A stretch of DNA of 64,000 bases from an uncultured Eubacteriales bacterium (GCA_964639205.1 CAZXCG010000002.1:3692-67691); one strand, 5' to 3'. Shown: positions 2,796 through 62,988, counted from the stretch's first letter. Notes: generated from the sequence alone by a model not told the origin. Made by a program: numbers and translations.

Positions 2796-4154
2796 ATGAG
2801 AAAAGTAAAAATATCGGGAATTATATCGTCGGCTCTTGTATTTGCGCTGGTGCTTGCAACGCTGACATTCGCGGCGTCGGCTGAAAGCTCCGGCGATTTC
2901 AGCTATACTGTTTTAGAAGACGGCACGGCTAAAATAACCGGCTACACCGGTCCGGGCGGCGATGTTGAAATTCCGTCTGAGATTAACGGCTGCATTGTAA
3001 CTGGCATTGGGAATGCCGCGTTTGTACGGTGTGAAAGCCTTACAAGCGTAACAATTCCCGACAGCGTTACAAGCATCGGTAATTCTGCGTTTTCCGGCTG
3101 TACAAGCCTTACAAGCGTTACAATTCCGGTCAGTGTGACGAGCATTGGTGATTTGCCGTTCTCCATCTGCACGCTATTAACGGCAATTAATGTAGCTGAA
3201 GAAAACGAAAATTACTGTTCTGTTGACGGCGTCCTGTTCAGCAAGGACGTTACCTCCTTGATTGCGTATCCGGCAGGAAAAGAACAATCGTCTTTTGACG
3301 TTCCGCAAAGTGTGACTGACATTGAATGCTATGCGTTTTACTATTGCAAAAATCTTACAGCGGTTACTATCCCCGAAAGCGTTACAAGCATTGAAGGCTA
3401 CGCGTTTTCCGGCTGTACGTCGTTAACGGCGATTGACGTAGATGAAAAAAATGAAAATTACTGTTCCGTTGCCGGAGTTGTGTTCGATAAGAACGTTGAG
3501 GAGCTGATTGCATATCCGATAGGAAATGAACAGACGGTTTATCTTGTTGCGGATGGTGTAACAAGCATTGGCGGCGGTGCGTTTGAGGGCTGTAAAAACC
3601 TTGAAGACGTTACGCTCCCGGCGAGTATGACGAGCATCGGCGACGACGCGTTTTACAGCTGCAAAAATCTTGTAAGCGTTACCCTCTCCGAAGGTCTGAC
3701 AAGTATTGGCGACAGTGCGTTTTTCGCCTGTCCCGGTCTTACAAGCATTACAATTCCCGCAAGCGTGACGGTTATAGGAGCAAACGCTTTTACTCACTGT
3801 ACAAGCCTTGAGCTTGCAACCTTCCTTTGCGATGATGTTGATATTTCGGAAAATGTTTTTAAAGACTGCGCCGAAAATCTTACAATACGCGCAGCGGCGG
3901 GCAGCTCGGCAGCAGAATATGCAAACGCAAACGGACTTACATTCAAAGATTCCGCTTTAGCTCCGGGCGATGTAAATTCCGACGGCAAGGTTGACTCTGC
4001 CGACGCTACTCTTGTTTTGCAATTTTATGCCGAAATTATCGGTGAAAATACAGAAGGGTACAACAACAGCGCCGCCGATTTAAACGGCGACGGCGCTGTA
4101 AATGCTGCGGACGCTACGATTATACTCCAAATGTACGCGGGAATAATAAATTAA
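2796..4154 (+). CDS. secreted BspA-type leucine-rich-repeat protein with C-terminal type I dockerin
   Basis: 452 aa. Signal peptide MRKVKISGIISSALVFALVLATLTFAASA. Repeated units of about 23 aa (SLTSVTIPxSVTSIGxxAFxxC). C-terminal duplicated Ca-binding segments GDVNSDGKVDSADATLVLQ / DLNGDGAVNAADATIILQ (nt ~3948-4151). Confidence 0.88.
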   Translation: MRKVKISGIISSALVFALVLATLTFAASAESSGDFSYTVLEDGTAKITGYTGPGGDVEIPSEINGCIVTGIGNAAFVRCESLTSVTIPDSVTSIGNSAFSGCTSLTSVTIPVSVTSIGDLPFSICTLLTAINVAEENENYCSVDGVLFSKDVTSLIAYPAGKEQSSFDVPQSVTDIECYAFYYCKNLTAVTIPESVTSIEGYAFSGCTSLTAIDVDEKNENYCSVAGVVFDKNVEELIAYPIGNEQTVYLVADGVTSIGGGAFEGCKNLEDVTLPASMTSIGDDAFYSCKNLVSVTLSEGLTSIGDSAFFACPGLTSITIPASVTVIGANAFTHCTSLELATFLCDDVDISENVFKDCAENLTIRAAAGSSAAEYANANGLTFKDSALAPGDVNSDGKVDSADATLVLQFYAEIIGENTEGYNNSAADLNGDGAVNAADATIILQMYAGIIN

Positions 4155-6751: not shown

Positions 6752-6871
6752 TGTTCCTTCCTCCCGAAATTACATTGGTAATTAAATTTTTTGCACTGCA
6801 TCCGAGCGCCGCAGCAGCGGAATATTTTAAGCTTAAAAGCAAAGCAACCCGCTTAAAATAGAGCCTGCGAA

Positions 6872-6923
6872 CATCTGCGCTCAGGTTCAATATTGGGCTT
6901 TGCGCCGTCATTATATTTAACTA
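6872..6923 (-). repeat. chimeric fragment of the intergenic element families
   Basis: Read on the minus strand: a family-1 right end (..GGCGCAAAGCCCAATATTGAA) abuts a family-2-like left end (CCTGAGCGCAGATG). Confidence 0.5.
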
Positions 6924-7043
6924 TGAACACTAAACCAACCTCAGCGCCCTAAGATTCGGACATAATCGCTTAAGATATAATATCACCAAATTTAGAAAAT
7001 AGCAACATTCTTTTGCAATTTTCGGAAAAAAAGGAGAATTCCT

Positions 7044-13620: not shown

Positions 13621-13638
13621 AAAGTGTACCGACCGGAG

Positions 13639-13785
13639 TTCAATAAGGGGCTTTGCCCCGTCATTCAACGCAGCAAAGAGCAGCGTTAGCTGCCTGAAAA
13701 ATCAGTGTGGGATGCAGTATTCCCAACTGATTCCGAAAGTGGAACCCGCCGCCTTATAGGCGGGAGACATCTTTGCCTGAGTTAT
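13639..13785 (-). repeat. structured intergenic element, family 1, copy A
   Basis: The minus strand reads TATAACTCAGGCAAAGATG..CCCGCCTATAAGGCGGCGGG..GGCAGCTAACGCTGC..TTGAATGACGGGGCAAAGCCCCTTATTGAA. It lies just 3' of the hexosamine kinase gene on the same strand. Confidence 0.85.
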
Positions 13786-13800
13786 ACCTGTTACAGCGGA

Positions 13801-21949: not shown

Positions 21950-22299
21950 TATTTTTGTTGCTCGAATTTTTATCTTTATTGCTACATTCGTTAAGTTTTA
22001 TAATATTTTTACCAAAATTGCCGCTATTTTTATGTCGCAAATTTGCCATAGAAGCTTTTAAATATCAGGCGGCGCCTGCCTTTCCCGCCGGAAAACGGGT
22101 CTGAGATTATCTTTCTTTTAATAAATATAATATAAAATAAACTAAATATAACCCGAACGCAGACGTCGCGGCAAGTGTTTTTATTCGGCAATTTATTGCA
22201 ATTTATCAAAAAAAGTGTTAAAATATCTAAAAAGCTTAAAAACATAAATATTTATACAATTATTGCGATATTGTGATAAATCGCGGAGGATACACCGTA

Positions 22300-23223: not shown

Positions 23224-24627
23224 TTAAGGGGAATTGCTTTCGGGTGATTCGGCTTTCTCGCTTAATTCGGCCACCTTCATCATAACGGCGCATTCGATGC
23301 GCTTGCGGTGCAGGACGCAGCCCGTTTCGTAGCACCCGTTAAGACTGCCGGTGAAATTATATGCGTTTGCCGTACAGCCGCCGCTGCAATACATACGCGC
23401 AAAGCAGTTGTCGCAATGAGGGCGGGTATAAATGTTGCTTTGTTTAAAACGACTGCGTATCTCTTCGTTTGTGATTCCGTCGAACACCGTGCCGAGCCGG
23501 AACTCTTCTTTACCTACAAACTGATGGCAGGGATAAAGCTCCCCCGTGGGAGTAACAGCAAGATATTCGCTCCCCGCCCCGCAGCCCGAAATACGTTTAT
23601 ATACGCACGGACCGCTTTGCAAATCAACCATATAATGATAAAAGGTAAAACCGCGCCCCTCCTTTTTCCGCTTAAGCATTTCAAGCGCAAGCTTATCGTA
23701 CTGATTTAAAATTTCCGGAATATCCTCCGGTTTAAGGGCATAATCCGCGTCCGGCGGGGCAACCACCGGCTCCATTGCAAGCTCTGTAAAGCCCAAATCT
23801 GCCATATGAAAAATATCTTCGGTAAAATCGGTATTATAATGAGTGTATGTGCCGCGAATATAGTACCCCTTGCCGCCGCGCTTTTCCGCAAGCTTTTGAA
23901 AATTCGGCAGTACAAGGTCGTAGCTGCCCAAGCCCGAGCGTGAAACCCGCATACGGTCATTGGTAGCTTTCCTGCCGTCAAGGCTGAGCACCACATTATA
24001 ACATTCTTTGTTTGCAAAATCTATTACTTCATCGTCAAGATTTATTCCGTTTGTTGTAAGGGTAAAGCGGAAATTTTTATTGTACTGCTTTTCCCGGCTG
24101 CGCGCATACGCCACAATATCCTTTACAACACCGAAATTAAGCAGAGGCTCGCCGCCGAAGAAATCAACCTCAAGATTACGGCGCGTACCCGATTGAGAAA
24201 TAAGAAAATCTATGGCTCTTTTGCCCACTTCAAAGCTCATAAGCGAACGCGCAGAATTGTATTCTCCGTTTCCGGCAAAGCAGTATTTGCAGGCAAGATT
24301 ACACCCATGAGCAATATGCAGGCACAGAGCCTTAACCGCAGCAGGGCGCTGCGCAAGCTCCTGCGCGAACGGACGGTAGACGTCCTCACTGAAAATCTTG
24401 CCCTGCCGCTTTAGGCTGTCTATATCGGACAAAATCTCCAAAATCTCGCCGCGCGTAACGTCCGGCGTACGGGCGTATTTTTCAAGAATCCGCTCGACTA
24501 TTTCATTGCGCGGCACCGTTTCGTACATGGAGATTACATCGTAAGCGACCTCATCCACAGAATGAACGCAGCCGCTGTTGCCGTCTATTACAATATTATA
24601 ACCGTTATTTTTATAAAGATGAACCAT
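23224..24627 (-). CDS. scfB: radical SAM/SPASM thioether-forming SCIFF peptide maturase
   Basis: 467 aa. CNLACKYCF radical SAM cluster; C-terminal SPASM Cys clusters (CGAGSEYLAVTPTGELYPC, CDNCFARMYCSGGC). The SCIFF precursor gene lies directly upstream. Confidence 0.88.
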   Translation of the reverse strand: MVHLYKNNGYNIVIDGNSGCVHSVDEVAYDVISMYETVPRNEIVERILEKYARTPDVTRGEILEILSDIDSLKRQGKIFSEDVYRPFAQELAQRPAAVKALCLHIAHGCNLACKYCFAGNGEYNSARSLMSFEVGKRAIDFLISQSGTRRNLEVDFFGGEPLLNFGVVKDIVAYARSREKQYNKNFRFTLTTNGINLDDEVIDFANKECYNVVLSLDGRKATNDRMRVSRSGLGSYDLVLPNFQKLAEKRGGKGYYIRGTYTHYNTDFTEDIFHMADLGFTELAMEPVVAPPDADYALKPEDIPEILNQYDKLALEMLKRKKEGRGFTFYHYMVDLQSGPCVYKRISGCGAGSEYLAVTPTGELYPCHQFVGKEEFRLGTVFDGITNEEIRSRFKQSNIYTRPHCDNCFARMYCSGGCTANAYNFTGSLNGCYETGCVLHRKRIECAVMMKVAELSEKAESPESNSP

Positions 24628-24638
24628 TAAAAGCTCCT

Positions 24639-24770
24639 ATAACTTTAGCGCGGACGTCCCCCGCCCCTGAGGCGGCGGGTTGCGGCTCGGAATTTAAGCG
24701 GGAGTTACAATTTGAAAAGCTGACGCTCCCCCCGCGCACGCTGCAACCGCAGCGTTACCTCGATTTAAAC
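24639..24770 (+). repeat. structured intergenic element, family 2, copy F
   Basis: TATAACTTTAGCGCGGACG..CCCGCCCCTGAGGCGGCGGG..CCGCGC..GCTGCAACCGCAGC. It shares the left module and the CCGCC-loop-GGCGG hairpin with family 1. Located between scfA and scfB on the opposite strand. Confidence 0.7.
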
Positions 24771-24771
24771 C

Positions 24772-24818
24772 TGTGCAAACAAAACCGCCGCACGGAACCG
24801 AACCGCACGGCGGTTTTG
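24772..24818 (-). terminator. intrinsic terminator/attenuator after the SCIFF precursor
   Basis: The minus strand has an AAAACCGCCG..CGGCGGTTTT hairpin followed by GTTTG, 9 nt after the scfA stop. Confidence 0.65.
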
Positions 24819-24826
24819 CGTTTGAA

Positions 24827-24976
24827 TTACTTTTCAGTCTTCTTTTCGCACTGCTGGTTAGCAATGCCGCAGGAAGTTTTGCACGCCGACTGGCAGGACG
24901 TCTGACACTCGCCGCAGCCGCCCTTCTTTGCGGATTCGGAAAGATTCCTGGTTTCAATTGTCTGAATTCTTTTCAT
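24827..24976 (-). CDS. scfA: SCIFF (six-cysteines-in-forty-five) ranthipeptide precursor
   Basis: Hand-translated 49-aa ORF, not in the track: MKRIQTIETRNLSESAKKGGCGECQTSCQSACKTSCGIANQQCEKKTEK. It has six Cys and the GGCGECQTSCQSACKTSC core. Confidence 0.9.
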   Translation of the reverse strand: MKRIQTIETRNLSESAKKGGCGECQTSCQSACKTSCGIANQQCEKKTEK

Positions 24977-27699: not shown

Positions 27700-27900
27700 T
27701 TTTTCATAAATCGTTCATATCCGTATCACAAACAATTCGCAAAGGCGGCGTACAATCAAAACAGAAAAGGGAAAGAAGGTGAATCCGATGGGTCGGTCAG
27801 AAACAGCTGCAATAAAATCAGCGGTTAAAAATCTAACGATCCGCTGAACACGATTCCCGGTCTACCCCATCGGTATAGAGTTAAAAAGGGCGGACATAAT

Positions 27901-28048
27901 ATAACTTAGGCAAAGATGTACCCCCCGCCTCCAAGGCGGCGGGTTCCATTCTCGGAATCAGCGGGGGGATACAATCTCCCAATGTGATTTCACAGACAAC
28001 TAACGCTGTCCTTTGCCACGTTGAATGGCGGGGCAAAGCCCATTATTA
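27901..28048 (+). repeat. structured intergenic element, family 1, copy B
   Basis: (T)ATAACTTAGGCAAAGATG..CCCGCCTCCAAGGCGGCGGG..CTAACGCTGTCCTTTGCCACGTTGAATGGCGGGGCAAAGCCCATTATTAAA. It ends 28 nt before the hsp20 ATG on the same strand. Confidence 0.85.
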
Positions 28049-28075
28049 AACACAACAATTTTGGAGGTATTTATT

Positions 28076-34581: not shown

Positions 34582-37500
34582 TTACTGCTGAATGGGGAAT
34601 TTACTGATAATATTAGCGTAGATCTGAAGAATCAGCGTTGCGTCTGAAGAGTCTATTACATTGTTGCCGTCAACATCAGCCGCTTTTTTAACGAACGTCT
34701 CGTAATTATCATCAATAATTTCTGCGTAACGCTGCAGAACAAGCGTCGCGTCGGCCGAGTCAACAGCGCCGTTTCCGTCAACATCGCCGAGGGTGTACTG
34801 CTCTTCGGCAGAAGAGCCTACCACGCGTATTTCTGCCGCAGATGAGTAATCTACATCCTGAGAATCCGAGTAAGATTCTACCGATACAAGCTTTACATAC
34901 TTTGTTTCTACCGTATCGAAGGAAGCGGTTTTAAGGGCTGAATCCGCCGACCATTCGCCTTCGCAAACAGTCTTCCATTCGTTACCGTCTTCACTTACTT
35001 CAATGCGGTATTTTGTGATTGTACCGTTAAGGTCAGACTGTGAGGGCAGGTAAGTTACAGCGTAAACGCCGTAGTCACCGTCCAGCTCCAGAATGATGTA
35101 ATGCAGCGAGCGGTCAGACCCGTTTAAATCGGTTTGCCAAATCGTGTTTACATCATCGTCAAGAGCCATCTCGGCTCCGGCGCCGACGGAGCTGCTGCCT
35201 GCCGTTGCGGTGATGCTGTCGGCCGGAATTACATCATCGGTTCCGTAAATGGTAACGTTCTGTGAAGCAAAGGTAACTGTTTTTGCAGTGTCCTTCAGCA
35301 TTGCCTGCACTGTTACGGTGTAGGTTCCACCGGGCAAATTTTGAAGCAGCGCGTCCGTATCGACCCAATCGCTTGTTGAAAAGTTATAGCTGCCGTTTGC
35401 TGCGGATACAAACACATATGCAACGTCTTGACCGTAGGCGCCGGAGAGCGCGTCGGCATCCAACTCAATTTGGTTCTGAGAAACGGTAAGCTGAGGAACA
35501 ATACTGCTGCTCTCATAGCCCATCGGGGTTTCGTACCAGTTGTTGTAAACCGCGCTGTTTAAAGAATCAAGTCCGAGAGCGTCAATAAACATACGCGCCA
35601 TATAGATGTGTCCGTTAGCCGACGGGTGCAGATTATCCGTTGAGTTAAAGAACAGGTAATCCGCTCTTGCGCCTAATGAATCGCCGTTTGCAATGTAGGT
35701 AAGGGAATTAACAAGATTCGTCGTTTCTTCAAACTGATTGATGAAGATAAGTCCGTTTTCTTCGGCAACTTCTTTGGCCGCCTGAACATAGTCGGGCTGG
35801 TTTGCATTGTAGTCAAGCCTTACAATAGGAGCGCGTATAACGGCTATTGCTCCCTTAGCTTCAATAGCATCGACAATAGACTGGAGATTTGCTTTATAGG
35901 TAGCCACGGGAATCAAATTGGCAAGCGTTGCGTCGTTTGTACCCAGTTGAACAGACACAACATCGGGGGAATAACGGTTAAGTCTTTCGTTTATTCTCGC
36001 AAGAGTAGACGTTGTGGTTGCCGATGAAACGGCGGTATTTATAACCGTGTCGTCAACTCTGCCCAAATCCTCGCGAATATATTTTGTGAATATATCCGCA
36101 ATGTTGTCGTAGGCTTTGCCGTAACCCATGGCAACGCCGTGAGTAATGGAGTCGCCCATAAACATCCATGTGAGCGGCTCGTCGCCGTTTACAAGGTCGG
36201 CAATCTGCTGCTGCTGTTCGTCAAGCTCTCGCTGATATTTAACGGCTGCGCTGCCTTCCTGTATAACGCCCTGCATTACCGTAAGCTGCGTTGTTCCGTC
36301 TTCGGAGCAAACCGTCAGGTAATATTCTGCGCCGGCGGGAAGAGCTTTAAACTCCGCCGTATTGCCGGACAGGCAGGAAACCGTGTACGAACCCTCAACT
36401 GTAAGAGCGTAATTCCAGTTTGTGCTTTCGTCAACGCCGGAGAGCGCCACGCTTAGGGATGTTTGACCCGCTGTAGCTGTGATTACCGCGTCGGCGTCGT
36501 AAACTGAGGGCCCTTCAACGGAAACAAGATTGAGGTTACTGCTTGTAAGAGATGAAGAAGCGCCGATCGCCTTTGCCTCAAACTGCTTGGAAATTGAAAG
36601 ATGACCCGTCGCGTTAAGAGAACCGTCCTCGTTAAGCGATGTGCTTAAGAAGCTTGCGTTATCCGTGCTTGCAAAGTGGTTTACAACCGCAACCCGTGCA
36701 AGCTGATCCTCCGGAAGAGCCGATACAACCTCGTTTACCGCAAGAGCATACGCGATTGCGTTTTCTCTGAGCTGTTCATCTGCGGGAGCATACGGGTTCT
36801 GAATTACCACATAGCCTGTTCCGCTTCTGAGGTTAAGTCCTTTTTCTATAAATGCGCTGAGGTTTGATTTAAATGCTTCAAGCGCGGAAGCTGAAGCGTC
36901 GTCTGCATAATCTTCGGCACCTACCATATATGAAACGGCTTTGGGGTCGAAGGCTGTAACAAGGGCGTCAAAGTCTTCAACTATATCGGCAAGAGTTCTG
37001 CCGGTTTGACCCTCGTTGATAACATAGCGTTCTCTGTTCGGGTTGCCCGTCAGGCTGTTTGTACCGTCCGCGCTGCCGGGGTTATTGTCGTAGGTGTATT
37101 CCTTAAACTGGGAAACATAGTTTTTAGCGCCGCCTACGTCAGAGAAAGGACCCTGAACAACGCGACCGCCGACAAACACCCATGTGTTGCCGCTTTCACT
37201 GTTGAACATTGTTGAAGCGCTTATCGAAGAACCGCTTGAAATATTGGGGACGGCGGTTTCTATTGCCGTGCGCTCAATAAGCTCCTCGTCCGAAAGCGGG
37301 ATGGAATAAGCTTCGGCAAAAGCAATTGTGCCGCCGAAATAATATGCCGAAGCGCCCGCGCGCATGGTCGAACCCAACTGGACTGTGTCAAGCCCTGTAA
37401 TATTGCTTATAAAGCTTGTTCTGCCGTCAAATGTGCCTACAAGGACGCCGTTGGCAAATACCTTGTACTGCTGCAAATCCTTATCGTACTTAACGGCTAT

Positions 37501-40500
37501 GGCGTTTTCACTTCCGCTGTTTAAAACCGCGCCGGTTGTAAACGAGTTGGTTGTGCCGCTTGCAATGTTGTCGCGCGATTCCATTCCGATAACACCGGCA
37601 GGCGTAATGTAAATGTGGAAGTGACGGTTGCTGTTGCCGGCAGTGTTGTTGGAAACGCTGATAAGCGACTGTATGGCATAGCTGGAGGTGGAAGTAAATT
37701 TAATGATGAACGTTCCCTCGTCCATAGCCATAACCCGACTTGCATAATCTTTACTTGTGAGTGAAACTCCGTTATTTGTGCTTACTTCAACGTTTTCTTC
37801 ACGGAAGATCAGCCCCTGAGCCGAGGCAATAATGTTAAAATCACTTTCTGAAGAATAGGAACCGTTTTCCGCCCTTACACGGATTGTGTAGGTTTGACCG
37901 TCTGTAAGCGCCTGCGAACCGATTTTCAAAACGCTGCCGTCGATTGCAAAGAGGCTGTTTTGATTATTTTCGCCTACAAGGGAATATGTGTAATTCCCTG
38001 CGGGAGCCACTGTGCTGACGGACAGAACGCCTATCTGCGCGCCGGCGGTTAAATCGGAAGCAATGTTGTTGCTGAGGAGGACGCCGAAGGTTACCTCCAT
38101 TTCGTCCGAAAGCGACGCTTGCTGCGAAGCAAACGTTACCGAAGTCGGAGTTGCTTTGAGCTCGGCGGTAACAGAAACCGTGTAATTTCCGTTTTCAAGG
38201 TTGGAGAGCGTCACCGTCGTTTCGGACGCTGTCGCCACGGTTTTGCTGAAAGAATTGCCGTCTTTATCAGCAGCTGTAAGAGTTACATAACCCAGGTCGC
38301 TGCCGTACTGCGAGGCAAGCTCGGACGCGTCTAAAACAATTTTACCCGGAGCGGCGGAAATCGACGGGGTAAGCGTGCTTGTCGATTCTGTCTTTGAAAT
38401 TTTGTACCAGTGGTTATAAACGGCACTGTTGTATGTGTCGAAGCCGAGGCTTTCGATAACTGTGCGCGCCATAACTATATGACCGTTTGCATTGGGGTGA
38501 ATGGCGTTTCCGAGCAGCAGATAATTTGCAAGGCTGCTGCCGTTAAGGTAGCTGGCGTTGTCTGTCAGCTCGCCGAAGGCTGCAAACTGGTCGGCAAATA
38601 TGACGTTGTCGTACGTTGCGGCTACTTCTCTTGTCTGCTGAATAACGGTTGCAAGATTTGTAACGTAAGAGCTGCCGGAGCTTGCGGGGGTTGAGGTTCT
38701 GAGCACTACTATAGCGCCCATCTCCTGAGCCTTATCTATAATCTGCGTAAGCTGCGTTTTAAAGTTTGCAAGGTTGCTCGCGGAGTCGTTCATACCGAGC
38801 TGAATTAAAACAACGTCGGGGCTGTAGTCGGTAAGTCTGCCGCTTATATTGTTTAACGTACTCTGGGCGGTCGCGCCGGAAACTGCGGTGTTGAGCACAA
38901 CGTCGTCGGTTCTGCCGAGCTCCTCTTTGATGTACTTTTCAAAAATCTGGCTGACGGAATCGTAGCCTGCCGTCCAAAGCGCTCCGTGAGTAATGGAATC
39001 GCCCATAAACAGCCATGTAAGCGATTCCTTCTGTTCCATTAAGTCGGCGATCGCCTGCTGGTTTTTATCCAATTGAGCGGTCTTTTTAACCGCTTTGTCG
39101 TTTTCGGCAACCGTGCCGCTCATTACGGTGTACTGTGTTACTCCGTCGGCGGTTGTTACCGTGAGCGTATATTCCTCGCCCTGCGGAAGCGCGGCGGTTG
39201 TAATGCCGCTTTCGGTATACTGAGAAGTTTTTGAAAGCGTGTAAGAATCGGTTTCAACAGTATATGTGTAGCTGTCGCCTACCGTAAGCTTATCCGAGGT
39301 GAAAGTAAGCGTGTTATCGCTGTTCACCACAGCGGTTACTTCAACGTCCGAATAAACGGTGGGACCTTCTTCAAGCTGCAAGGAAAGGTTTGAATCCGTT
39401 ATGCTGTAGCTCAAGCCGATTGCCGAGCAAAGCTCCCTTGCAATTTCAAGCTGACCGTTTGCGTTAAGATAACCGGATTCATTGATTTTTGAAGCGAAAG
39501 CCGCCGAACCGGAGGTGAGGCGGTTGTGGTTGACAACCAGGACGCGCGGCTGAACCGTGCTGTCAAGAGCGCTGACAACCTCGTTTACCGCAAGAGCGTA
39601 GGCTTTTGCAGCCTCCGCTTGATTTTCATCGGCGGGAGTATAGGGGTTTTGAATAACTACGCGCCCGGTATTGTCTCTTTGAGCAAGACCCTTTTCTATA
39701 AAGCTCTTGAGATTTTCCTTAAAGGCGGTAAGCACGGTATCCTCGGTTCCCTTGCTGTAATCCTCGTACCCAACAAGATAAGCTATAGTCTGGGGATTAA
39801 CCTCTGCAAGAGACGCATCCAGAGAACCTACCACCTTTGCTATGTCGTTGCCTGTAGCGCCGAAGTTTGTAACAAAGCGCGCCATATTCACGCTGTAGCC
39901 GCCCGACGAGGCGTTAGTTGCGTCGCCCGAACCGGGGTTATTCTGCCAGCGGATTGCCTCTTCAAACTGCCTTACATAGTTTCTTGATCCGCCCGCCTCG
40001 GCATATGTTCCCTGAACGTCGCGCCCGCCGAAGAAAGCCCAGGTGTTCTTTTCAACGTCAGACGAAGGAGCAGTTTTTGATTTAACGTCTGCGCCCGTGG
40101 CAAGGTCGGGAACCGCGTCGGGGTCAACGGGCAAAGCCGTAATAACGGCAAGCTCATCCGCTGTGTAAACCTCTTCGGAAATTAAGGCAAAGTAAATAGT
40201 GCCGCAGAAAAGCCTCATATTTCCGGCAACGGTGCCGTCCAAGCCGCCGAGATACAGGCGGTCAATTTCAGTATTGCTGAAAAATTTTGCAGCACCCGAA
40301 AAAGACTGAGCGTTTGCGCCGTCGGACGCCGCAACGGTTGAAGTTCCGCTTACCGTGGAAAAAGCATATATGTGCTTCTGACCGTCGTTTATGCCGCTCT
40401 GCGCTCCGTTTGCGCCCCAGTAAGTACTGGTAGTGGAGCTGTTATTAAACGAAAAGCGAAAAGTATTGCTTTTAACTCCCGTCCAGAAATGATTGAAGCT

Positions 40501-41115
40501 GCCGGAACCGAAAACAGCATAGGTGCCGGTGCTGTTGGTTGAGGTGTTGGAGTTGGTTGTAGCAATGCTGTAAATAACCGAACCCTGTGACAAAGCCTTA
40601 AGCTTTGCAATAACATCCGGATTTGTTGTCTCGCTTGTTCTTACGTTGGGGCCGGCAAGCTGAACTACGCTGTCTGTGGAATCGCCTGCAAAAACCTCGC
40701 CGGCGTCGCCGTAGTCAACAGCTACCAGAGCGTTTTTCTTCAACGCTTCAAGACCTGTTTGCTCGCTGACCGTTGCGCTGCCAACGGTTTCTGAATTCTT
40801 TTTGACGGTGTAGGTTTCGCCGCCCTCGGTTCCGGTGGCAACCGGAACAATCGCGGTGTAGTAATATGTGCCGTCGGCGGAAACATGCGTTATGGTTGCC
40901 GACGAGGTTATATCACCGCTTGAATTTTCAACAGTAAACGTTGCCTCGTCAGAGCTTTGCCATTCGATTTTATGGGACTTGTAAAGAGCAGACGCAGTAA
41001 CCGCATTTCCCGCGTCCTCAGCGCCCGCCGTGAACGGAACCGCGGTGAATACCGAAAGCACCATAATCACGGAAAGCAGAATGGAAAGCGTTCTTTTTGA
41101 ATAAGCTTTCATCAA
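34582..41115 (-). CDS. giant secreted multidomain protein: 2 x (LamG-like + degenerate SGNH + Ig-like + intact SGNH esterase + Ig-like), F5/8 type C (discoidin/CBM32-like), dockerin
   Basis: 2177 aa. Signal peptide MMKAYSKRTLSILLSVIMVLSVFTAVPFTAGA. GDS motifs at residues 705-707 (nt 38995-39003) and 1654-1656 (nt 36148-36156), with LGMNDS/LGTNDA and HPNANGH/HPSANGH blocks. GGR replaces GDS at residues 363-365 and 1316-1318. Discoidin-like region ..DDDVNTIWQTD..KYRIEVSEDGNEW... C-terminal dockerin GDVDGNGAVDSADATLVLQ / DVDGNNVIDSSDATLILQ. Confidence 0.88.
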   Translation of the reverse strand: MMKAYSKRTLSILLSVIMVLSVFTAVPFTAGAEDAGNAVTASALYKSHKIEWQSSDEATFTVENSSGDITSSATITHVSADGTYYYTAIVPVATGTEGGETYTVKKNSETVGSATVSEQTGLEALKKNALVAVDYGDAGEVFAGDSTDSVVQLAGPNVRTSETTNPDVIAKLKALSQGSVIYSIATTNSNTSTNSTGTYAVFGSGSFNHFWTGVKSNTFRFSFNNSSTTSTYWGANGAQSGINDGQKHIYAFSTVSGTSTVAASDGANAQSFSGAAKFFSNTEIDRLYLGGLDGTVAGNMRLFCGTIYFALISEEVYTADELAVITALPVDPDAVPDLATGADVKSKTAPSSDVEKNTWAFFGGRDVQGTYAEAGGSRNYVRQFEEAIRWQNNPGSGDATNASSGGYSVNMARFVTNFGATGNDIAKVVGSLDASLAEVNPQTIAYLVGYEDYSKGTEDTVLTAFKENLKSFIEKGLAQRDNTGRVVIQNPYTPADENQAEAAKAYALAVNEVVSALDSTVQPRVLVVNHNRLTSGSAAFASKINESGYLNANGQLEIARELCSAIGLSYSITDSNLSLQLEEGPTVYSDVEVTAVVNSDNTLTFTSDKLTVGDSYTYTVETDSYTLSKTSQYTESGITTAALPQGEEYTLTVTTADGVTQYTVMSGTVAENDKAVKKTAQLDKNQQAIADLMEQKESLTWLFMGDSITHGALWTAGYDSVSQIFEKYIKEELGRTDDVVLNTAVSGATAQSTLNNISGRLTDYSPDVVLIQLGMNDSASNLANFKTQLTQIIDKAQEMGAIVVLRTSTPASSGSSYVTNLATVIQQTREVAATYDNVIFADQFAAFGELTDNASYLNGSSLANYLLLGNAIHPNANGHIVMARTVIESLGFDTYNSAVYNHWYKISKTESTSTLTPSISAAPGKIVLDASELASQYGSDLGYVTLTAADKDGNSFSKTVATASETTVTLSNLENGNYTVSVTAELKATPTSVTFASQQASLSDEMEVTFGVLLSNNIASDLTAGAQIGVLSVSTVAPAGNYTYSLVGENNQNSLFAIDGSVLKIGSQALTDGQTYTIRVRAENGSYSSESDFNIIASAQGLIFREENVEVSTNNGVSLTSKDYASRVMAMDEGTFIIKFTSTSSYAIQSLISVSNNTAGNSNRHFHIYITPAGVIGMESRDNIASGTTNSFTTGAVLNSGSENAIAVKYDKDLQQYKVFANGVLVGTFDGRTSFISNITGLDTVQLGSTMRAGASAYYFGGTIAFAEAYSIPLSDEELIERTAIETAVPNISSGSSISASTMFNSESGNTWVFVGGRVVQGPFSDVGGAKNYVSQFKEYTYDNNPGSADGTNSLTGNPNRERYVINEGQTGRTLADIVEDFDALVTAFDPKAVSYMVGAEDYADDASASALEAFKSNLSAFIEKGLNLRSGTGYVVIQNPYAPADEQLRENAIAYALAVNEVVSALPEDQLARVAVVNHFASTDNASFLSTSLNEDGSLNATGHLSISKQFEAKAIGASSSLTSSNLNLVSVEGPSVYDADAVITATAGQTSLSVALSGVDESTNWNYALTVEGSYTVSCLSGNTAEFKALPAGAEYYLTVCSEDGTTQLTVMQGVIQEGSAAVKYQRELDEQQQQIADLVNGDEPLTWMFMGDSITHGVAMGYGKAYDNIADIFTKYIREDLGRVDDTVINTAVSSATTTSTLARINERLNRYSPDVVSVQLGTNDATLANLIPVATYKANLQSIVDAIEAKGAIAVIRAPIVRLDYNANQPDYVQAAKEVAEENGLIFINQFEETTNLVNSLTYIANGDSLGARADYLFFNSTDNLHPSANGHIYMARMFIDALGLDSLNSAVYNNWYETPMGYESSSIVPQLTVSQNQIELDADALSGAYGQDVAYVFVSAANGSYNFSTSDWVDTDALLQNLPGGTYTVTVQAMLKDTAKTVTFASQNVTIYGTDDVIPADSITATAGSSSVGAGAEMALDDDVNTIWQTDLNGSDRSLHYIILELDGDYGVYAVTYLPSQSDLNGTITKYRIEVSEDGNEWKTVCEGEWSADSALKTASFDTVETKYVKLVSVESYSDSQDVDYSSAAEIRVVGSSAEEQYTLGDVDGNGAVDSADATLVLQRYAEIIDDNYETFVKKAADVDGNNVIDSSDATLILQIYANIISKFPIQQ

Positions 41116-41144
41116 ATTCCTCCTGTCTGATTAAAATTAACTCA

Positions 41145-41289
41145 AGCCGTCGGCTTGCCTTTAATGGGCGAAGTTTACAGCAGACTGCATGCGCCGCGGG
41201 AAGCTTCGGCTCTTTAAAGCTTAGGCGGAAGCCGTCCCGGCGTGAAGCCCCGCCGCCTTAGAGGCGGTGGCCGTCCGCGCTCAGGTTAT
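41145..41289 (-). repeat. structured intergenic element, family 2, copy G
   Basis: The minus strand reads TATAACCTGAGCGCGGACGGCCACCGCCTCTAAGGCGGCGGGG... It lies in the sense orientation within the predicted 5' UTR of the giant gene. Confidence 0.7.
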
Positions 41290-41314
41290 AATTGCGTTAA
41301 ACTACTCCACTTAT

Positions 41315-41343
41315 ATTGTATACATTTATGACAAAGATGTCAA
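41315..41343 (-). promoter_or_regulatory. sigma-A type promoter for the giant dockerin gene
   Basis: The minus strand reads TTGACA-17 nt-TACAAT, about 195 nt upstream of the ATG. Confidence 0.55.
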
Positions 41344-53110: not shown

Positions 53111-53151
53111 GACAGAAAAGCACCCGGCAAGATTTTTGCATCTTGCCGGGT
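53104..53151 (-). terminator. intrinsic terminator after the MacB-type ABC operon
   Basis: ACCCGGCAAGAT-6 nt-ATCTTGCCGGGT. The minus strand continues GCTTTTCTGTCAAAATAT. Confidence 0.6.
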
Positions 53152-53152
53152 A

Positions 53153-53203
53153 TTCAATAAGGGACTTTGCCGCGCCATTCAACGTGGCAAAGGGCAGCGT
53201 TAG
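53153..53203 (-). repeat. structured intergenic element, family 1, truncated copy C (right-end third only)
   Basis: The plus strand reads TTCAATAAGGGACTTTGCCGCGCCATTCAACGTGGCAAAGGGCAGCGTTAG, matching copy A up to the GCAGCGTTAGC hairpin. After that the similarity stops. Confidence 0.7.
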
Positions 53204-53244
53204 GTACAGCTCGGCAAAGAGATTTTTTTAAAATAAGACAGCAT

Positions 53245-55971
53245 TTATTCCGCGTTTTTAAGCGCCTCGTCCATGGGGACCCTCTTAATCCGTCTGAAAT
53301 CAAACAAGACAACGATACAGTAGCCGATAAGCACAAACAGGAACATCTTAGCGTAGCCGACCGCACTGATTTGGAAGGTGAACCACCCGCTGTACTCTGA
53401 CATGATTGCCTCCCACGCCTTATTCATGAAAAGTGAACCGAGCACCACGCCGACGGCGTCGGCAATCAGCAGGACGAGCGCTGTGGATTTCAGATACAGA
53501 CTTGCAATTTCCCGATTTTCGTAGCCGAGTATTTTGGTCATTGAAATGGCGTTCTCGTTTTTCTCAATGATGATTTTGCTCAGCAGGTAAATCATCGCCG
53601 CCGACAGCAGTATGCAAAGCACCTGAAAGTATTGCATATACGAGCCCATGGAGTGGTCGAGCTGATCGCACATTTTTGTTATATCCCGCTCGGTAATTAC
53701 GGCGGCAACGGTATCCTCGCCGAGATCGGTTATTTCCGTGTCGGACAGAAAACCGTTGAATTCCCCCTCTTCCAAAGCAAAAACAGAGCGGAAATTATCA
53801 ACCGTCATAAACACCGCAATGCTCGCGGATTTATCATAAAAACCGGCAACCCGGAAGGAATACTGCTTATTCTCATACTTTTCGTCAAGCGTCACCGTGT
53901 CTCCCGGGGAAACGCCGTATTTATCACGGAAAGATTCGGAAATATAAACCTCGTTTTCACCGAGGGAGGGCAGTTCCTCTATGGTAACATAACGGCTTGC
54001 GGGCGAAATTCCGTAAACGGAAATTTCCTCATCGAACGCTTCGCTTTTCAGTTGCAGGGATTTCGTGCAAAACTGCTCTGCGTCGCCGTTTAGGGTTGTG
54101 ACGGCATTTCCGTCGTCATCCTCGCAGGATTTCAGCACATATTGATATTTTGAAAACATCATATCACCGACATTTTCTTTATAATAATCCAAGGTTTCGG
54201 GCATACCCACTGCCATGGCCATCATAACCATAACAAAAAAGATACCGAAAAACAAAATGATATAATTCGGGATATTTTGAAAGATTATGCGCAGGCGGAA
54301 GCGGCGGAAAAATCTCCATTTTGGCAGGCGCATGGCCTTTTTGCGCCCGCTCCTCTTTAAATCTCCGCGAAGGAATCGGAGAGGCGTGTGCTGCATTTTT
54401 ACCGAAATTATCAACAGATTGACAAGGAACATCAACGCCAGCGGAATCAGTGTGGTTTTCAGAAACGCGTTTGCGTTCCATACAGTTTCGTAAGTCGGCA
54501 GACTGTAGCTGTTGTAGTACATAGAAACCACAACATCCTTGAAAACCGTGTAACCGAGTATATTGCCGACCGCCGCCGAAATCAGTGTGACAATCACGGG
54601 CATAGTCATATAGTGCCTGATAAGCTCGCCCTTTGTGTAGCCGGACGCGCGCAGTGTACCGATGGTTTTAGATTCTCTTGTAACAGTATTGCTGATTGTA
54701 ACGGCAAAAATGAACGCGATGATCAAAGTCAGAATATCAAGGAGAACTCCGCCTATAGCCAGATCGCTGCCCATATCGTCGCCTGCGAAATGTATCGCCT
54801 GATTGGCATATGCGGGGAGAAAGTCCTTAAGCTCGTTTTCGTAAACAACGGTTTGCGTCAAAAGCGCCGGGAGAAAATCGTCGGAAAAAGCCTTCTCTTC
54901 ATTCTCATCCGCAGGGTCGTTATCGTACTGCCAAGCATAGGAATAGTGAATTTCGCCTTTCAGGCGTGCAAAGCCGCTTTCTGTCACCATGGCTGTATCA
55001 AATTTGAGCGCGTCAAAAATCAAATCCGTGTTCTTTTCGTGCAGCGTAGAATAGTTGACATAGGCAATCAACCCGACTACCCGGTAGCTTTCCGCGCCTA
55101 CGGTAATGCTGTCTCCGACCTTTATGCCCGCATTATCCGCATGCATACGGTCAACGGCAATTTCGTTGCCGTTTTCGGGAAAACGGCCGTCCATCAGGCA
55201 GGCAAGATTGACGTCCTCGGTCTTTTTGAAGACGCGGATTGTGCCGTCGGCAGCTCCGTCGTTATTATTGTCCTCTTCCTCGTTTCGGTAGAAATTCTCA
55301 TATAAAGTGACCGGAACGCTCTGAAAAGACGAATCGTTTAATTTATATTTTTCTTCCGCTTCGGCATATTCTTCGTTTATTTCAGTCAGAATTTCGTCCC
55401 AAGCTTCGTCATAAGCCTCAGCATATGCTTCACTGTAAGCGCCGGCATAAGCTTCCTCATAGGCGCTGTCATAGGCCGCCTGATAATTTCCGCTCTGTTT
55501 TGCCTGCTCGATAGCCGCCGGAAGCATGGCGTATACAGCAGCTTCGTCCGACGTCTGCGCCGTCAAAGCGCTTTTTATTTGATCAGTAAAAGAAGCTTCA
55601 AATTCATCGGCAAATTTTGCGTCAAATTCCTTTGTAAATTCCGCTTTGAATTCGTCCTCAAATTTTTCGTCGAGCTCCGCCTTTGCTTCTTCGATATAAT
55701 ACGCTTTTACATCCGCTTTTTCTCCGGAGGCAATCGCGGAAAGCAATTTTTCGTCCGCTTTGTCGTTCAGTTCAAAGTGGCCGTCCTCAAGCTTGTATTT
55801 CACAACACTTTCGTCCGCTGCCGCCATCATGCTGCCGTTTGCCACATACATACCGGAAACAAAGCCGATAACCAAAATCAGAAACAGACCGACCACAAGA
55901 TATTTCCGCCAGTCGCCGAGTATTTCTCTCCGGATACGTTTTACAAGCGGATTATGAATTTTTCTTTTCAT
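53245..55971 (-). CDS. ABC transporter permease with two FtsX/MacB-type domains and a large extracytoplasmic region
   Basis: 908 aa from the ATG at 55971 (AAGGAG RBS overlapping the ATPase stop). TM clusters at about aa 400-540 and 790-915 of the track ORF. Acidic repeat-rich insert near the N-terminus. Confidence 0.85.
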   Translation of the reverse strand: MKRKIHNPLVKRIRREILGDWRKYLVVGLFLILVIGFVSGMYVANGSMMAAADESVVKYKLEDGHFELNDKADEKLLSAIASGEKADVKAYYIEEAKAELDEKFEDEFKAEFTKEFDAKFADEFEASFTDQIKSALTAQTSDEAAVYAMLPAAIEQAKQSGNYQAAYDSAYEEAYAGAYSEAYAEAYDEAWDEILTEINEEYAEAEEKYKLNDSSFQSVPVTLYENFYRNEEEDNNNDGAADGTIRVFKKTEDVNLACLMDGRFPENGNEIAVDRMHADNAGIKVGDSITVGAESYRVVGLIAYVNYSTLHEKNTDLIFDALKFDTAMVTESGFARLKGEIHYSYAWQYDNDPADENEEKAFSDDFLPALLTQTVVYENELKDFLPAYANQAIHFAGDDMGSDLAIGGVLLDILTLIIAFIFAVTISNTVTRESKTIGTLRASGYTKGELIRHYMTMPVIVTLISAAVGNILGYTVFKDVVVSMYYNSYSLPTYETVWNANAFLKTTLIPLALMFLVNLLIISVKMQHTPLRFLRGDLKRSGRKKAMRLPKWRFFRRFRLRIIFQNIPNYIILFFGIFFVMVMMAMAVGMPETLDYYKENVGDMMFSKYQYVLKSCEDDDGNAVTTLNGDAEQFCTKSLQLKSEAFDEEISVYGISPASRYVTIEELPSLGENEVYISESFRDKYGVSPGDTVTLDEKYENKQYSFRVAGFYDKSASIAVFMTVDNFRSVFALEEGEFNGFLSDTEITDLGEDTVAAVITERDITKMCDQLDHSMGSYMQYFQVLCILLSAAMIYLLSKIIIEKNENAISMTKILGYENREIASLYLKSTALVLLIADAVGVVLGSLFMNKAWEAIMSEYSGWFTFQISAVGYAKMFLFVLIGYCIVVLFDFRRIKRVPMDEALKNAE

Positions 55972-55985
55972 ACCGTAAGCGCTCC

Positions 55986-56702
55986 TTACCATTCCAGATC
56001 GGCGGCTGAAGCTTTGCAGCCGTTATGTTCGTTCAGACGCACTTCGCCGTCGCGCAGCTTGATTATGTGATCTGCCATACCCTTAATAGGCTCGTTGTGA
56101 GTGACCATAATAACCGTGTTTTTATACTTGACGTTTATATCCTCTATAAGCTTTAAAATTTCCTTTGAAGTAGTATAATCCAACGCGCCGGTCGGCTCGT
56201 CGCACAGCAGTATATCCGGATTTTTGACAATCGCCCTGCCTATGGAAACCCGCTGCTGCTGTCCGCCGGAAAGCTGGTTGGGCAGCTTATGGCGGTGCTC
56301 GTAAAGTCCGAGTGTGTTCAGCAATTCGTCGATGTCCAGCGGGCTGTCCGACAAATACGCTCCCACCTCGATATTTTCCTTAACATTCAGATTTCCGATG
56401 AGATTATAAAGCTGGAATACATAGCCGAGGTGCTTGCGGCGATATTGTGTCAAACGCTTTTCGCTCATATCCTCCAATTTATCTCCGCCGATGTAAATAC
56501 AGCCGGAATCGGCGCTGTCTATGCCGCCTATGATATTCAGCAGAGTGGACTTTCCGGAGCCGGAAGGACCGAGGAGCACGCAAAATTCCCCTTTTGCAAC
56601 GGAAAAGCTCAAACCGCGGAGCACCTCTTGGCGGGTTTCTCCGCTCCCAAAAGATTTTCTTAAATCAACTATTTTCAAAAAATTCTTTTCTGCATCTGAC
56701 AT
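55986..56702 (-). CDS. ABC transporter ATP-binding protein (MacB/LolD-like)
   Basis: 238 aa. [35 protein letters not shown]. Confidence 0.93.
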
Positions 56703-60542: not shown

Positions 60543-60559
60543 TTTCTGTCCTCCTAATT

Positions 60560-60703
60560 ATAACTTAGGCAAAGATGCCCCCAGCCTCTAAGGCGGCTGG
60601 TTTCATTTTCGGAATCGGTGAGGGGATACAATCCCCCATTGATTTTTAAGGCGGCTAACACTGCCCTTGCCACGTTGAATGACCGGCAAAGGGCATTATT
60701 GAA
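60560..60703 (+). repeat. structured intergenic element, family 1, copy D
   Basis: (T)ATAACTTAGGCAAAGATG..CCAGCCTCTAAGGCGGCTGG..GGGGATACAATCCCC..GGCGGCTAACACTGCC..TTGAATGACCGGCAAAGGGCATTATTGAA. It starts 18 nt from the exporter ATG on the opposite strand. Confidence 0.85.
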
Positions 60704-60810
60704 AATTTTTACGATAAATACTCCGCCGCAGCCGGATTCCGATATTGCTTGTTAGTTAGTAAAAACTAACCTTTTGTCAAAAAAATAAATAATAAATACA
60801 GCTATACAAT

Positions 60811-61771: not shown

Positions 61772-61863
61772 TGGCGCAGAAGGAGGGATTTGAACCCTCG
61801 CGTCGGCGTTACCGACCTACCGGTGTTCGAAGCCGGACCCTTCAGCCGCTTGGGTACTTCTGC
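61772..61863 (-). tRNA. tRNA-Ser (anticodon CGA), class II with long variable arm, CCA encoded
   Basis: Minus strand: GCAGAAG TA CCC AAGCGGCTGAA GGG T CCGGC TTCGAAC ACCGG TAGGTCGGTAACGCCGACGC GAGGG TTCAAAT CCCTC CTTCTGC G CCA. 7-bp acceptor stem, 3-bp D stem, T-loop TTCAAAT, anticodon loop TT-CGA-AC. Confidence 0.9.
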
Positions 61864-62786: not shown

Positions 62787-62834
62787 AATCTTTGCACCGT
62801 ATTTTCAAGGCGAAATAAGCACTGCGCGTTATCT

Positions 62835-62979
62835 ATAACTTAGGCAAAGATGCCCCTCCGCCTCTAAGGCAGCGGATTCCGTTTTCGGAATCAGTGGGGG
62901 ACAATCCGCCATTGATTTCACAGGCAGCTAACGCTGCCCTTTGCCGCGTTGAACGACGGGGCAAAGCCCCCTTATTGAA
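62835..62979 (+). repeat. structured intergenic element, family 1, copy E
   Basis: (T)ATAACTTAGGCAAAGATG..TCCGCCTCTAAGGCAGCGGA TTCCGTTTTCGGAATCAG..GGCAGCTAACGCTGCCCTTTGCCGCGTTGAACGACGGGGCAAAGCCCCCTTATTGAA. Lies between the AKR stop and the cohesin-like gene start, on the opposite strand. Confidence 0.85.
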
Positions 62980-62988
62980 CAATAATAA

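Follow-up and report, generated by a model that had tools for sequence, protein, structure and literature searches.

BOX of Streptococcus pneumoniae is built as boxA-boxB(n)-boxC and has no known mobilising enzyme. REPs are single hairpins of 20-40 nt that occur mostly in Proteobacteria, often as inverted pairs, and flank a RAYT gene; REP/BIME units are probably mobilised by an HUH enzyme that recognises the hairpin beside a conserved short motif. Classical MITEs (Correia, ERIC, RUP, bcr1) have inverted repeats at their termini and duplicate the target (often TA), and integron attC sites form a single long imperfect palindrome with RYYYAAC at the 5′ side and GTTRRRY at the 3′ side. In IS608, hairpins lie ~19 and ~10 nt from the ends. 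IS200/IS605 elements and PATEs insert as a single strand 3′ of a transposon-adjacent motif (TAM; known examples include TTTAT and TTCAT), without duplicating the target (PMC10055086). PATEs, first named in Haloquadratum (PMC3119063), are gene-less derivatives of IS200/IS605 that are driven in trans (PMC10055086, which also gives the TEM concept).

The window, that is, the whole 64,000-nucleotide stretch of DNA analysed here, contains eight copies or fragments of a non-coding element, 130-175 bases long, that resembles several of these systems in part. Like PATEs, it is small, non-coding and present in many copies, lacks terminal inverted repeats and target duplication, and has a fixed short AT-rich motif on its left (TATAA here, TTTAT/TTCAT in PATEs), a related right-end motif (TTGAA or TTAAA), a hairpin close inside either end and dispensable internal parts. 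The hairpins stand ~18 nt (left) and 8 nt (right) from the ends, much as in IS608. The element differs from PATEs in four respects: among the fetched copies and in 1.66 Mb of flanks we found neither an autonomous element nor a TnpA/TnpB that shares its ends; its left and right hairpins are unlike, whereas in IS200/IS605 they are alike and one TnpA binds both; its copies show no strand bias in the window; and its body is a covarying multi-helix junction that goes beyond two end hairpins.

The likeness to BOX is one of architecture only, with conserved 5′ and 3′ modules, variable inner modules, a strong fold, and intergenic positions in both orientations. Sequence and host order differ, however, and the element has a fixed flanking TATAA and shows compensatory changes in a long-range closing helix. 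With REP/BIME it shares the character of high-copy extragenic palindromic units, but REPs are 20-40 nt single hairpins and the element is a 130-175-base multi-helix junction. Classical MITEs are similar in size (100-200 nt), intergenic position, and possible co-transcription with neighbours and folding in mRNA, but have the terminal inverted repeats and target duplication that the element lacks. We rejected an integron attC site: TATAAC fits RYYYAAC in part, the 3′ GTTRRRY is missing and the fold is a multi-helix junction. Our best reading is that the element is mobile but not autonomous, and of one kind with PATEs, BOX or REPs.

Within that known class of small structured non-autonomous repeats, it is apparently an undescribed member. 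A literature search by keyword and by sequence string found no account of it. At gathering thresholds, Rfam 15 returned only tRNA for the whole window, the sole match being a tRNA gene, its variable arm long, at 61775-61863 (-; 48.2 bits). When F, B and a canonical beta copy (see below) were searched against Rfam 15 by E-value, nothing rose above noise: scores reached 20 bits at the most, whereas the thresholds are 37-90.

Forms of the element and their distribution

The commonest form, beta, is ~175 nt long. In its canonical version, folded as a single strand, hairpins P2, P3 and P4 sit in a junction closed by helix P1, and a 3′ domain (P5-P7) follows (Table 1). The alpha form, called family 1 in an earlier note on this DNA, has its first 60 nt and P3/P4-like hairpins in common with beta and differs in GGCAAAG/CTTTGCC and in the 3′ end GGGGC-AAA-GCCCC-TTATTGAA. 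Across alpha and beta, conservation is as high in the junction strands and loops as in the stems.

The earlier note proposed two families within a modular element superfamily. The superfamily is borne out by forms that combine both types, and by a covariance model made from foreign beta copies only, which finds the four alpha copies A-D of the window at 49-65 bits. In hybrids (L099 and many others; L-numbers, such as L015 or L120, label fetched loci), inner hairpins like those of family 1 stand together with a 3′ end of family 2. Composites at L129 (two copies), L139 and L145, all of MAG CALXWJ01, consist of a complete alpha plus the 3′ part of beta. This alpha-beta composite stands at four loci with different left flanks, and appears to have spread by its alpha left end and beta right end. 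Deletion derivatives that retain both termini have spread and occur at several loci (for example, short forms at L126, L140, L167, L182 and L219 and minimal ones such as that at L142). The two forms are thus related well beyond a shared GC-rich hairpin, but they are not discrete families.

Copies F and G are decayed members of the much commoner 175-nt form. Compared with canonical beta, F is missing one strand each of P3 (the 3′ one) and P4 (the 5′ one), and its P5-P6 region has collapsed; alignment to the covariance model makes its 3′ hairpin the counterpart of the collapsed P5-P7 region. The minimum-energy fold of F is a three-branch junction closed by exactly GCGCGG/CCGCGC, with a stability relative to shuffles of z = -2.53 on the element strand and -1.04 on the complement. 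Under a model made from copies of other genomes only, F scores 67.8 bits (E = 6e-17) and G 54.3 bits. The closing helix of G is imperfect: GCGCGG (41280-41275) can face CCGCGG (41199-41194) or CGGCGC (41196-41191), forming 5/6 pairs in either of two registers, and the fold is not better than that of shuffles (z = -0.68).

The earlier description of F was accurate in its TATAAC start and CCGCC..GGCGG hairpin, both of which F and G have in common with the four family-1 copies, in the exact position of CCGCGC, and in placing GCTGC-AACC-GCAGC after the closing strand. Its positions for GCGCGG (24647-24652) and for the whole copy (24639-24770) were each off by one base (Table 1). G, given as 41145-41289 (-), is indeed a copy, but starts at 41290 and more likely ends at 41160 (CCCATTAAA) than at 41145.

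Table 1. Parts of the canonical beta form, copies of the element in the window, and the genes beside copies F and G
Feature	Position	Strand	Sequence or remark
Canonical beta, 5′ start			TATAACCTAA, then P1 5′ strand GCGCAG, then ATGTCC
Canonical beta, P2			CCCGCC / TCTAAGGC / GGCGGG, then TTCCATT
Canonical beta, P3			TCAG..TTCAGTGGGAG / loop TTATAAT / CTCCCACTGAA..CTGA
Canonical beta, P4			GGAGC / TAAC / GCTCC, then P1 3′ strand CTGCGC
Canonical beta, 3′ domain			P5 TTGC..GCAA; P6 GCTCTGCT..AGCAGAGC; possible P7 GGAGC-GTT-GCTCC; end GATTTAAA
Copy A, alpha type (family 1)	13635-13786	-	Sense, 3′ UTR of kinase-like gene, upstream of terminator
Copy B, alpha type	27900-28052	+	Sense, 5′ UTR of hsp20 gene
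Copy C, alpha type	60559-60708	+	Antisense between two - strand genes
Copy D, alpha type	62834-62985	+	Antisense between two - strand genes
Copy F, decayed beta type	24638-24769	+	TATAAC (24638-24643) to end GATTTAAA
F, P1 5′ strand	24648-24653	+	GCGCGG; from sequence and fold
F, P1 3′ strand	24732-24737	+	CCGCGC; from sequence and fold
F, hairpin P2	24660-24679	+	CCCGCC, loop CCTGAGGC, GGCGGG
F, 3′ hairpin	24738-24755	+	ACGCTGC-AACC-GCAGCGT; from alignment to model
Copy G, diverged beta type	41160-41290	-	3′ boundary uncertain, 41131-41160
Copy H, 5′-truncated alpha	53149-53225	-	Sense, 3′ UTR of FtsX/MacB-like gene
Degenerate tandem	6833-6979	-	Model hit of 15 bits, E = 0.014
SCIFF precursor	24827-24976	-	PF13165
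Radical-SAM maturase of SCIFF	23224-24627	-	
Gene downstream of G	34582-41115	-	2177 aa; GDSL-lipase, sialidase-N, F5/8-C and dockerin domains

The window has six matches to the hairpin motif (expected, 0.00), and nhmmer and the covariance model added the truncated copy H and the degenerate tandem. In the tandem, an alpha-like copy (6979 to 6886; TATATCTTAAG...AATATTGAA) directly adjoins a beta 5′ module (CCTGAGCGCAGATG, from 6885) without a TATAA of its own; the pair lies antisense between a DnaI-like and a MiaB-like gene. The host gene of H, FtsX/MacB-like, occupies 53245-55992 (-), and a terminator hairpin follows H. Copies A, B, G and H are sense to a neighbour, and C, D and F antisense; C touches, with its 5′ end, the ribosome-binding site belonging to an ABC transporter gene. 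The neighbours in the window comprise hsp20, ABC transporters, a TetR regulator, an aldo-keto reductase, kinase-like and FtsX-like genes, SCIFF and the lipase/dockerin gene. At 22147-22190 (+), TATAACCCGAACGCAGACGTCGCGGC fits the pattern of the 5′ module, with no recognisable body, and is either a remnant or a chance match.

Several further roles for parts of the element were considered and rejected. A 33-codon ATG frame after GGCAAAG in one copy suggested a small peptide gene, but indels shift the frame among copies. A promoter at TATAAC lacks the final conserved T of a -10 box and has nothing conserved upstream, a promoter from the P3 loop TTATAAT lacks a usable -35 box, and joining the 3′ end to the 5′ end, as in the circle-junction promoter of IS110-like elements, gives no -35/-10 pair. 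A pseudoknot of the 5′ CTTAG with CTAAG in the P2 loop is feasible in alpha but impossible in beta.

The first two genome scans used over-degenerate patterns, and most hits outside Clostridia were chance matches that were removed with nhmmer; a sharper pattern gave about 100 true hits. The 103 fetched loci hold 139 distinct copies, every one from Clostridia assemblies (Oscillospiraceae, Ruminococcaceae, Ruminococcus, Candidatus Ornithomonoglobus, Eubacteriales and unclassified Clostridia), and the one cultured carrier among them is Fumia xinanensis NSJ-33. Searches of viral contigs and plasmids gave 0 hits, and phage records a single 44-nt partial match. Many copies lie at contig ends, especially in MAG CAZKBV01, which is the expected behaviour of a high-copy repeat. 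Exact-protein look-ups for other strains matched only Logan sample SRR10165008; the Logan contig breaks at copy D. An unannotated, strongly folding repeat would explain assembly breaks in gut and rumen Oscillospiraceae. The element is easily mistaken for a riboswitch or small RNA, and the covariance model built here would let annotators mask it.

Other modules also occur within or between copies. A second recurrent module (CGCAATGCGCTRCGCTGTTTCGCTTTGGGCTGTTCGCCCAAAGGC) is inserted inside or after P2 in several beta copies of MAG CAZKBV01 (L015, L149, L154, L164 and L198), as a hitch-hiking sub-module carried by the element. At L203:6220-6350, two 5′ modules stand tail to tail (TATAAC... facing ...GTTATA), making a MITE-like unit whose inverted ends are built from two left ends.

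Covariation of the closing helix

Where family 1 has GGCAAAG...CTTTGCC, F has GCGCGG...CCGCGC, and the earlier note took this exchange of a whole helix, complementarity preserved, as the mark of selection on a closing helix. Further compensated variants agree with that reading: P1 is found as GCGCAG/CTGCGC, GTGCAG/CTGCAC, GCGCGG/CCGCGC and GGCAAAG/CTTTGCC. Of the copies whose 3′ domain can be recognised, 14 combine GCGCAG with CTGCGC and 10 GTGCAG with CTGCAC, and few are mixed. The pairing of F is not lost elsewhere but recurs in L010, L126, L140 and L167; these four lack the inner hairpins, and the two strands pair there as a local hairpin.

Gathering the copies and testing their helices for covariation, as the same note had proposed, gave a clear signal for beta. 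In 35 beta copies, standard pairs fill 93.8% of pair cells, against 36-50% when the pairing partners are slid, i.e. displaced by 1 to 3 columns. Cells with a double change number 40 in these copies, against 9.9 in column shuffles (reached in 0/500), although this control ignores phylogeny and the close relatedness of many copies inflates the cell counts above the number of independent events. At the second pair of P1 (column 12/116), 23 copies have C-G and 8 have U-A. P2, P3 and P6 also covary; the third pair of P2 occurs as C-G, U-A and A-U, and P6 has three adjacent covarying pairs. Since the closing helix changes by matched substitutions, the fold matters.

The alpha form is less clear-cut. 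The structure that RNAalifold predicted from alpha copies aligned with MAFFT was poor, and CTTTGCC has two possible partners, the 5′ GGCAAAG and a 3′ GGCAAAG. The local 3′ hairpin covaries (CTTGTCC/GGACAAG in MAG CALXWJ01, where the 5′ strand is left without a partner). Thus, the complementarity that was noted for family 1 is real, but its long-range helix has a local, covarying competitor and is less secure than P1 of beta.

The fold is most likely kept for the spread of the element itself and not for control of neighbouring genes. Mismatches in the helices comprise 42 G·U and 38 A·C, and because G·U but not A·C would be acceptable in a working RNA, their near-equality points to neutral decay of inserted copies. 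In the model that we favour, lineages that propagate would keep their helices by compensatory changes because the machinery that copies or moves them needs the fold, and single inserted copies would decay neutrally after insertion. Covariation alone is therefore no proof of a host function, since here, in a case of unusual clarity, a compensatory long-range helix is found in a selfish repeat.

Genomic context, ends and mode of spread

Between co-directional genes, 30 copies are sense and 17 antisense (17/47 = 36%), and a further 25 lie in convergent and 23 in divergent spacers, all by crude ORF calls. The neighbouring genes share no function, and the constant sense orientation upstream of related genes by which a leader or riboswitch is recognised is not seen. 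We are highly confident that the element is a dispersed repeat that moves or once moved, and no dedicated regulator.

The opposite view, which we consider improbable, is that the copies belong to a host-selected family of regulatory or structural RNAs (leaders, 3′ UTR elements or small RNAs of many genes, serving for instance as a protein platform, an RNase barrier or a thermosensor), in which F and G control the SCIFF and dockerin genes. Several helices are supported by covariation, and the conservation of junction strands and loops to the level of stems is not predicted by simple recognition of end hairpins and would suit a functional RNA. Sense copies are in slight excess, and some stand 10-30 nt upstream of a ribosome-binding site (B at hsp20, G, L013, L032, L043, L057 and L061); in addition, the 3′ domain has mutually exclusive pairings that resemble a switch. 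However, more than a third of copies between co-directional genes are antisense, F included, G·U and A·C mismatches are equal, and the neighbours have no common function. Copies number in the dozens or hundreds and include genome-specific subfamilies and deletion derivatives, and L120 has no element at the same SCIFF site. F and G themselves are truncated, and the fold of G does no better than shuffles.

In another reading, to which we give very little credence, the element is a domesticated REP/BIME- or BOX-like repeat, immobile now and homogenised by gene conversion within each genome, with a role in mRNA stabilisation, transcription punctuation or nucleoid-protein binding. Its intergenic position in either orientation, its enrichment in convergent and divergent spacers, its BOX-like modularity and the failure to find a transposase fit this reading, as does the greater similarity of copies within a genome: copies average 88.6% identity within genomes and 82.6% between them, and in 17/19 cases the most similar copy belongs to the same MAG. 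Yet deleted and composite forms at several loci with different flanks indicate copying to new sites, the left boundary is always a precise TATAA, and junctions between copies suggest targeted insertion.

The ends are sharply defined. Conservation begins exactly at TATAAC and stops exactly after GATTTAAA in beta or TTATTGAA in alpha. In flank logos TATAA always precedes the element, and neither the logos nor the sequences contain terminal inverted repeats or a target duplication. Three types of junction, each a single ancestral event, suggest that TATAA is a retained target and that the element proper would start at the C after it. At L015, two copies stand head to head and overlap in the palindrome TTATAA. 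In the window's tandem, at 6886/6885, the second copy starts with CCTGAG directly after ..ATATTGAA, with no second TATAA. At L129, L139 and L145, the alpha 3′ end runs into T+CTCCC, the point in the P3 loop of beta that comes exactly after TTATAA. Scans for further tandem, nested or head-to-head junctions found none.

Our interpretation, which we hold to be the probable one, is that F is a partly decayed copy of a repeat that is mobile DNA now or was so recently, and whose fold is needed for propagation. In its favour are the high copy number and narrow host range, the unrelated neighbours, the mixed orientation, the clustering of copies by genome, which reflects amplification within genomes, the spread of deleted forms and the empty SCIFF site of L120. 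Insertion might proceed through a single strand, with hairpins as guides, on the 3′ side of a short motif, the mode of IS200/IS605 and the gene-less PATEs, and the driver would be an enzyme acting in trans and encoded elsewhere. An IS200/IS605-like mechanism specifically is the likeliest one, but we advance it only as a tentative and rather doubtful proposal. The left hairpin P2 starts ~18 nt from the left end and the right hairpin (GGAGC-GTT-GCTCC or GGGGC-AAA-GCCCC) stops 8 nt short of the right one, but the two are dissimilar, CCCGCC(8-nt loop)GGCGGG against GGAGC(GTT)GCTCC or GGGGC(AAA)GCCCC. In the window, 4 copies lie on the + and 4 on the - strand, a small sample; the near-uniform GC skew suggests that the window lies within one replichore, and its copies show no replication-strand bias.

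Searches for the driver itself and for unoccupied sites gave the following. No copy is of autonomous size, none exceeding ~260 nt. The 64-kb window contains no transposase gene, all other scanned ORFs being housekeeping, and a regex screen of 1.66 Mb of flanks found no Y1-transposase-like or TnpB-like ORF. A search for empty sites by joined flanks returned filled orthologues only (L183/L224 and L191/L222), and the only empty site is the SCIFF locus of L120, a relative too distant to reveal the exact target; none of high identity turned up. An indel between L184 and L195, considered as another empty site, is instead a His-rich coding repeat.

The fold might also serve as an RNA encoded by the element, for example as the omega-RNA scaffold of a TnpB/IscB nuclease, carried by a gene-less PATE. 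On this account, which seems to us unlikely, the whole 150-175-nt element would be transcribed into its 3′ flank and the nuclease's need for a scaffold would drive the covariation. PATEs 'often encode omega-RNAs' that work with TnpB supplied in trans (PMC10055086), and the 5-nt TATAA-type motif is like the known TAMs TTTAT and TTCAT. The size, the multi-helix build and the conserved loops and junctions suit an RNA scaffold better than end hairpins alone. A sense of strand is visible in F, which beats shuffles on the element strand only, and in one subfamily, whose P4 (GGAGA../..GCTTT) has a fixed G·U that would be A·C on the other strand; overall, however, G·U equals A·C. No Rfam 15 family matches, the regex screen of the flanks found no TnpB-like ORF, and an internal promoter is not evident, TATAAC having neither the last T of a -10 box nor a -35 box.

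With similarly low probability, an enzyme acting in trans that is unrelated or only distantly related to TnpA/TnpB recognises the four-way junction of a self-propagating 175-nt module, as folded single-stranded DNA or as a guide-like RNA, in an undescribed mobilisation system of Oscillospirales. Insertion beside TATAA would then sometimes fall in -10 boxes, so that host promoters would transcribe the element. The mobilising enzyme, if found, would be of interest for genome engineering through its TATAA target rule and its RNA or DNA cofactor.

Copies F and G beside the SCIFF-maturase and dockerin genes

Copies near ribosome-binding sites (F and C) or in 5′ UTRs (B and G) may alter host expression, and the genes possibly affected include those for SCIFF maturation, heat shock and cellulosome-type functions. 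On the model of mobile DNA that we prefer, such effects would be side effects. F and G could change the translation or stability of adjacent transcripts; in the comparative data we saw no selection for effects of either copy on neighbouring genes.

F lies between the SCIFF precursor and its maturase, as the earlier note stated. That note missed its orientation: both genes are on the - strand, which makes F antisense to the operon. Its 5′ end abuts the maturase ribosome-binding site. In L120, a relative with the same synteny and a 76% identical maturase, the spacer runs from SCIFF through a terminator hairpin to the maturase ribosome-binding site without the element, and the gap from the upstream decarboxylase gene to the maturase, which holds SCIFF, measures 299 nt against 428 nt in the window. 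On the - strand of the window, at 24776-24815, a hairpin and T run (AAACCGCCGTGCGG..CCGTGCGGCGGTTTT) follow the SCIFF precursor and precede the maturase. They are conserved in L120, which lacks the element, and probably form an intra-operon attenuating terminator that sets the ratio of precursor to maturase.

Speculatively, F would put a hairpin-rich segment (~-50 kcal/mol) into the SCIFF-maturase transcript in the form of the element's complement. This segment stands between the intra-operon terminator and the maturase ribosome-binding site, immediately before the latter. Any effect on the SCIFF operon or the dockerin gene would be a by-product, in the form of an extra stable hairpin in the transcript beside the ribosome-binding site.

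G lies sense in the 5′ UTR of the dockerin gene, and the earlier placement of its start ~18 nt after the likely transcription start fits a predicted promoter, TTGACA-17-TACAAT, that ends at 41315. We speculate that G might supply a similar hairpin-rich segment to the leader of this 2177-aa dockerin gene. Between G and the ribosome-binding site of the gene, a terminator-like hairpin (CAAGCCGACGGCTTG then AGTTAATTTT) stands at 41143-41157 (-), and may be a leader attenuator or a piece of the degenerate 3′ end of G. A second dockerin protein, of the BspA-type LRR kind, is encoded at 2796-4154 (+), and with two dockerin-bearing proteins in the window the source is probably a Ruminococcaceae or Oscillospiraceae organism of the cellulosome type.
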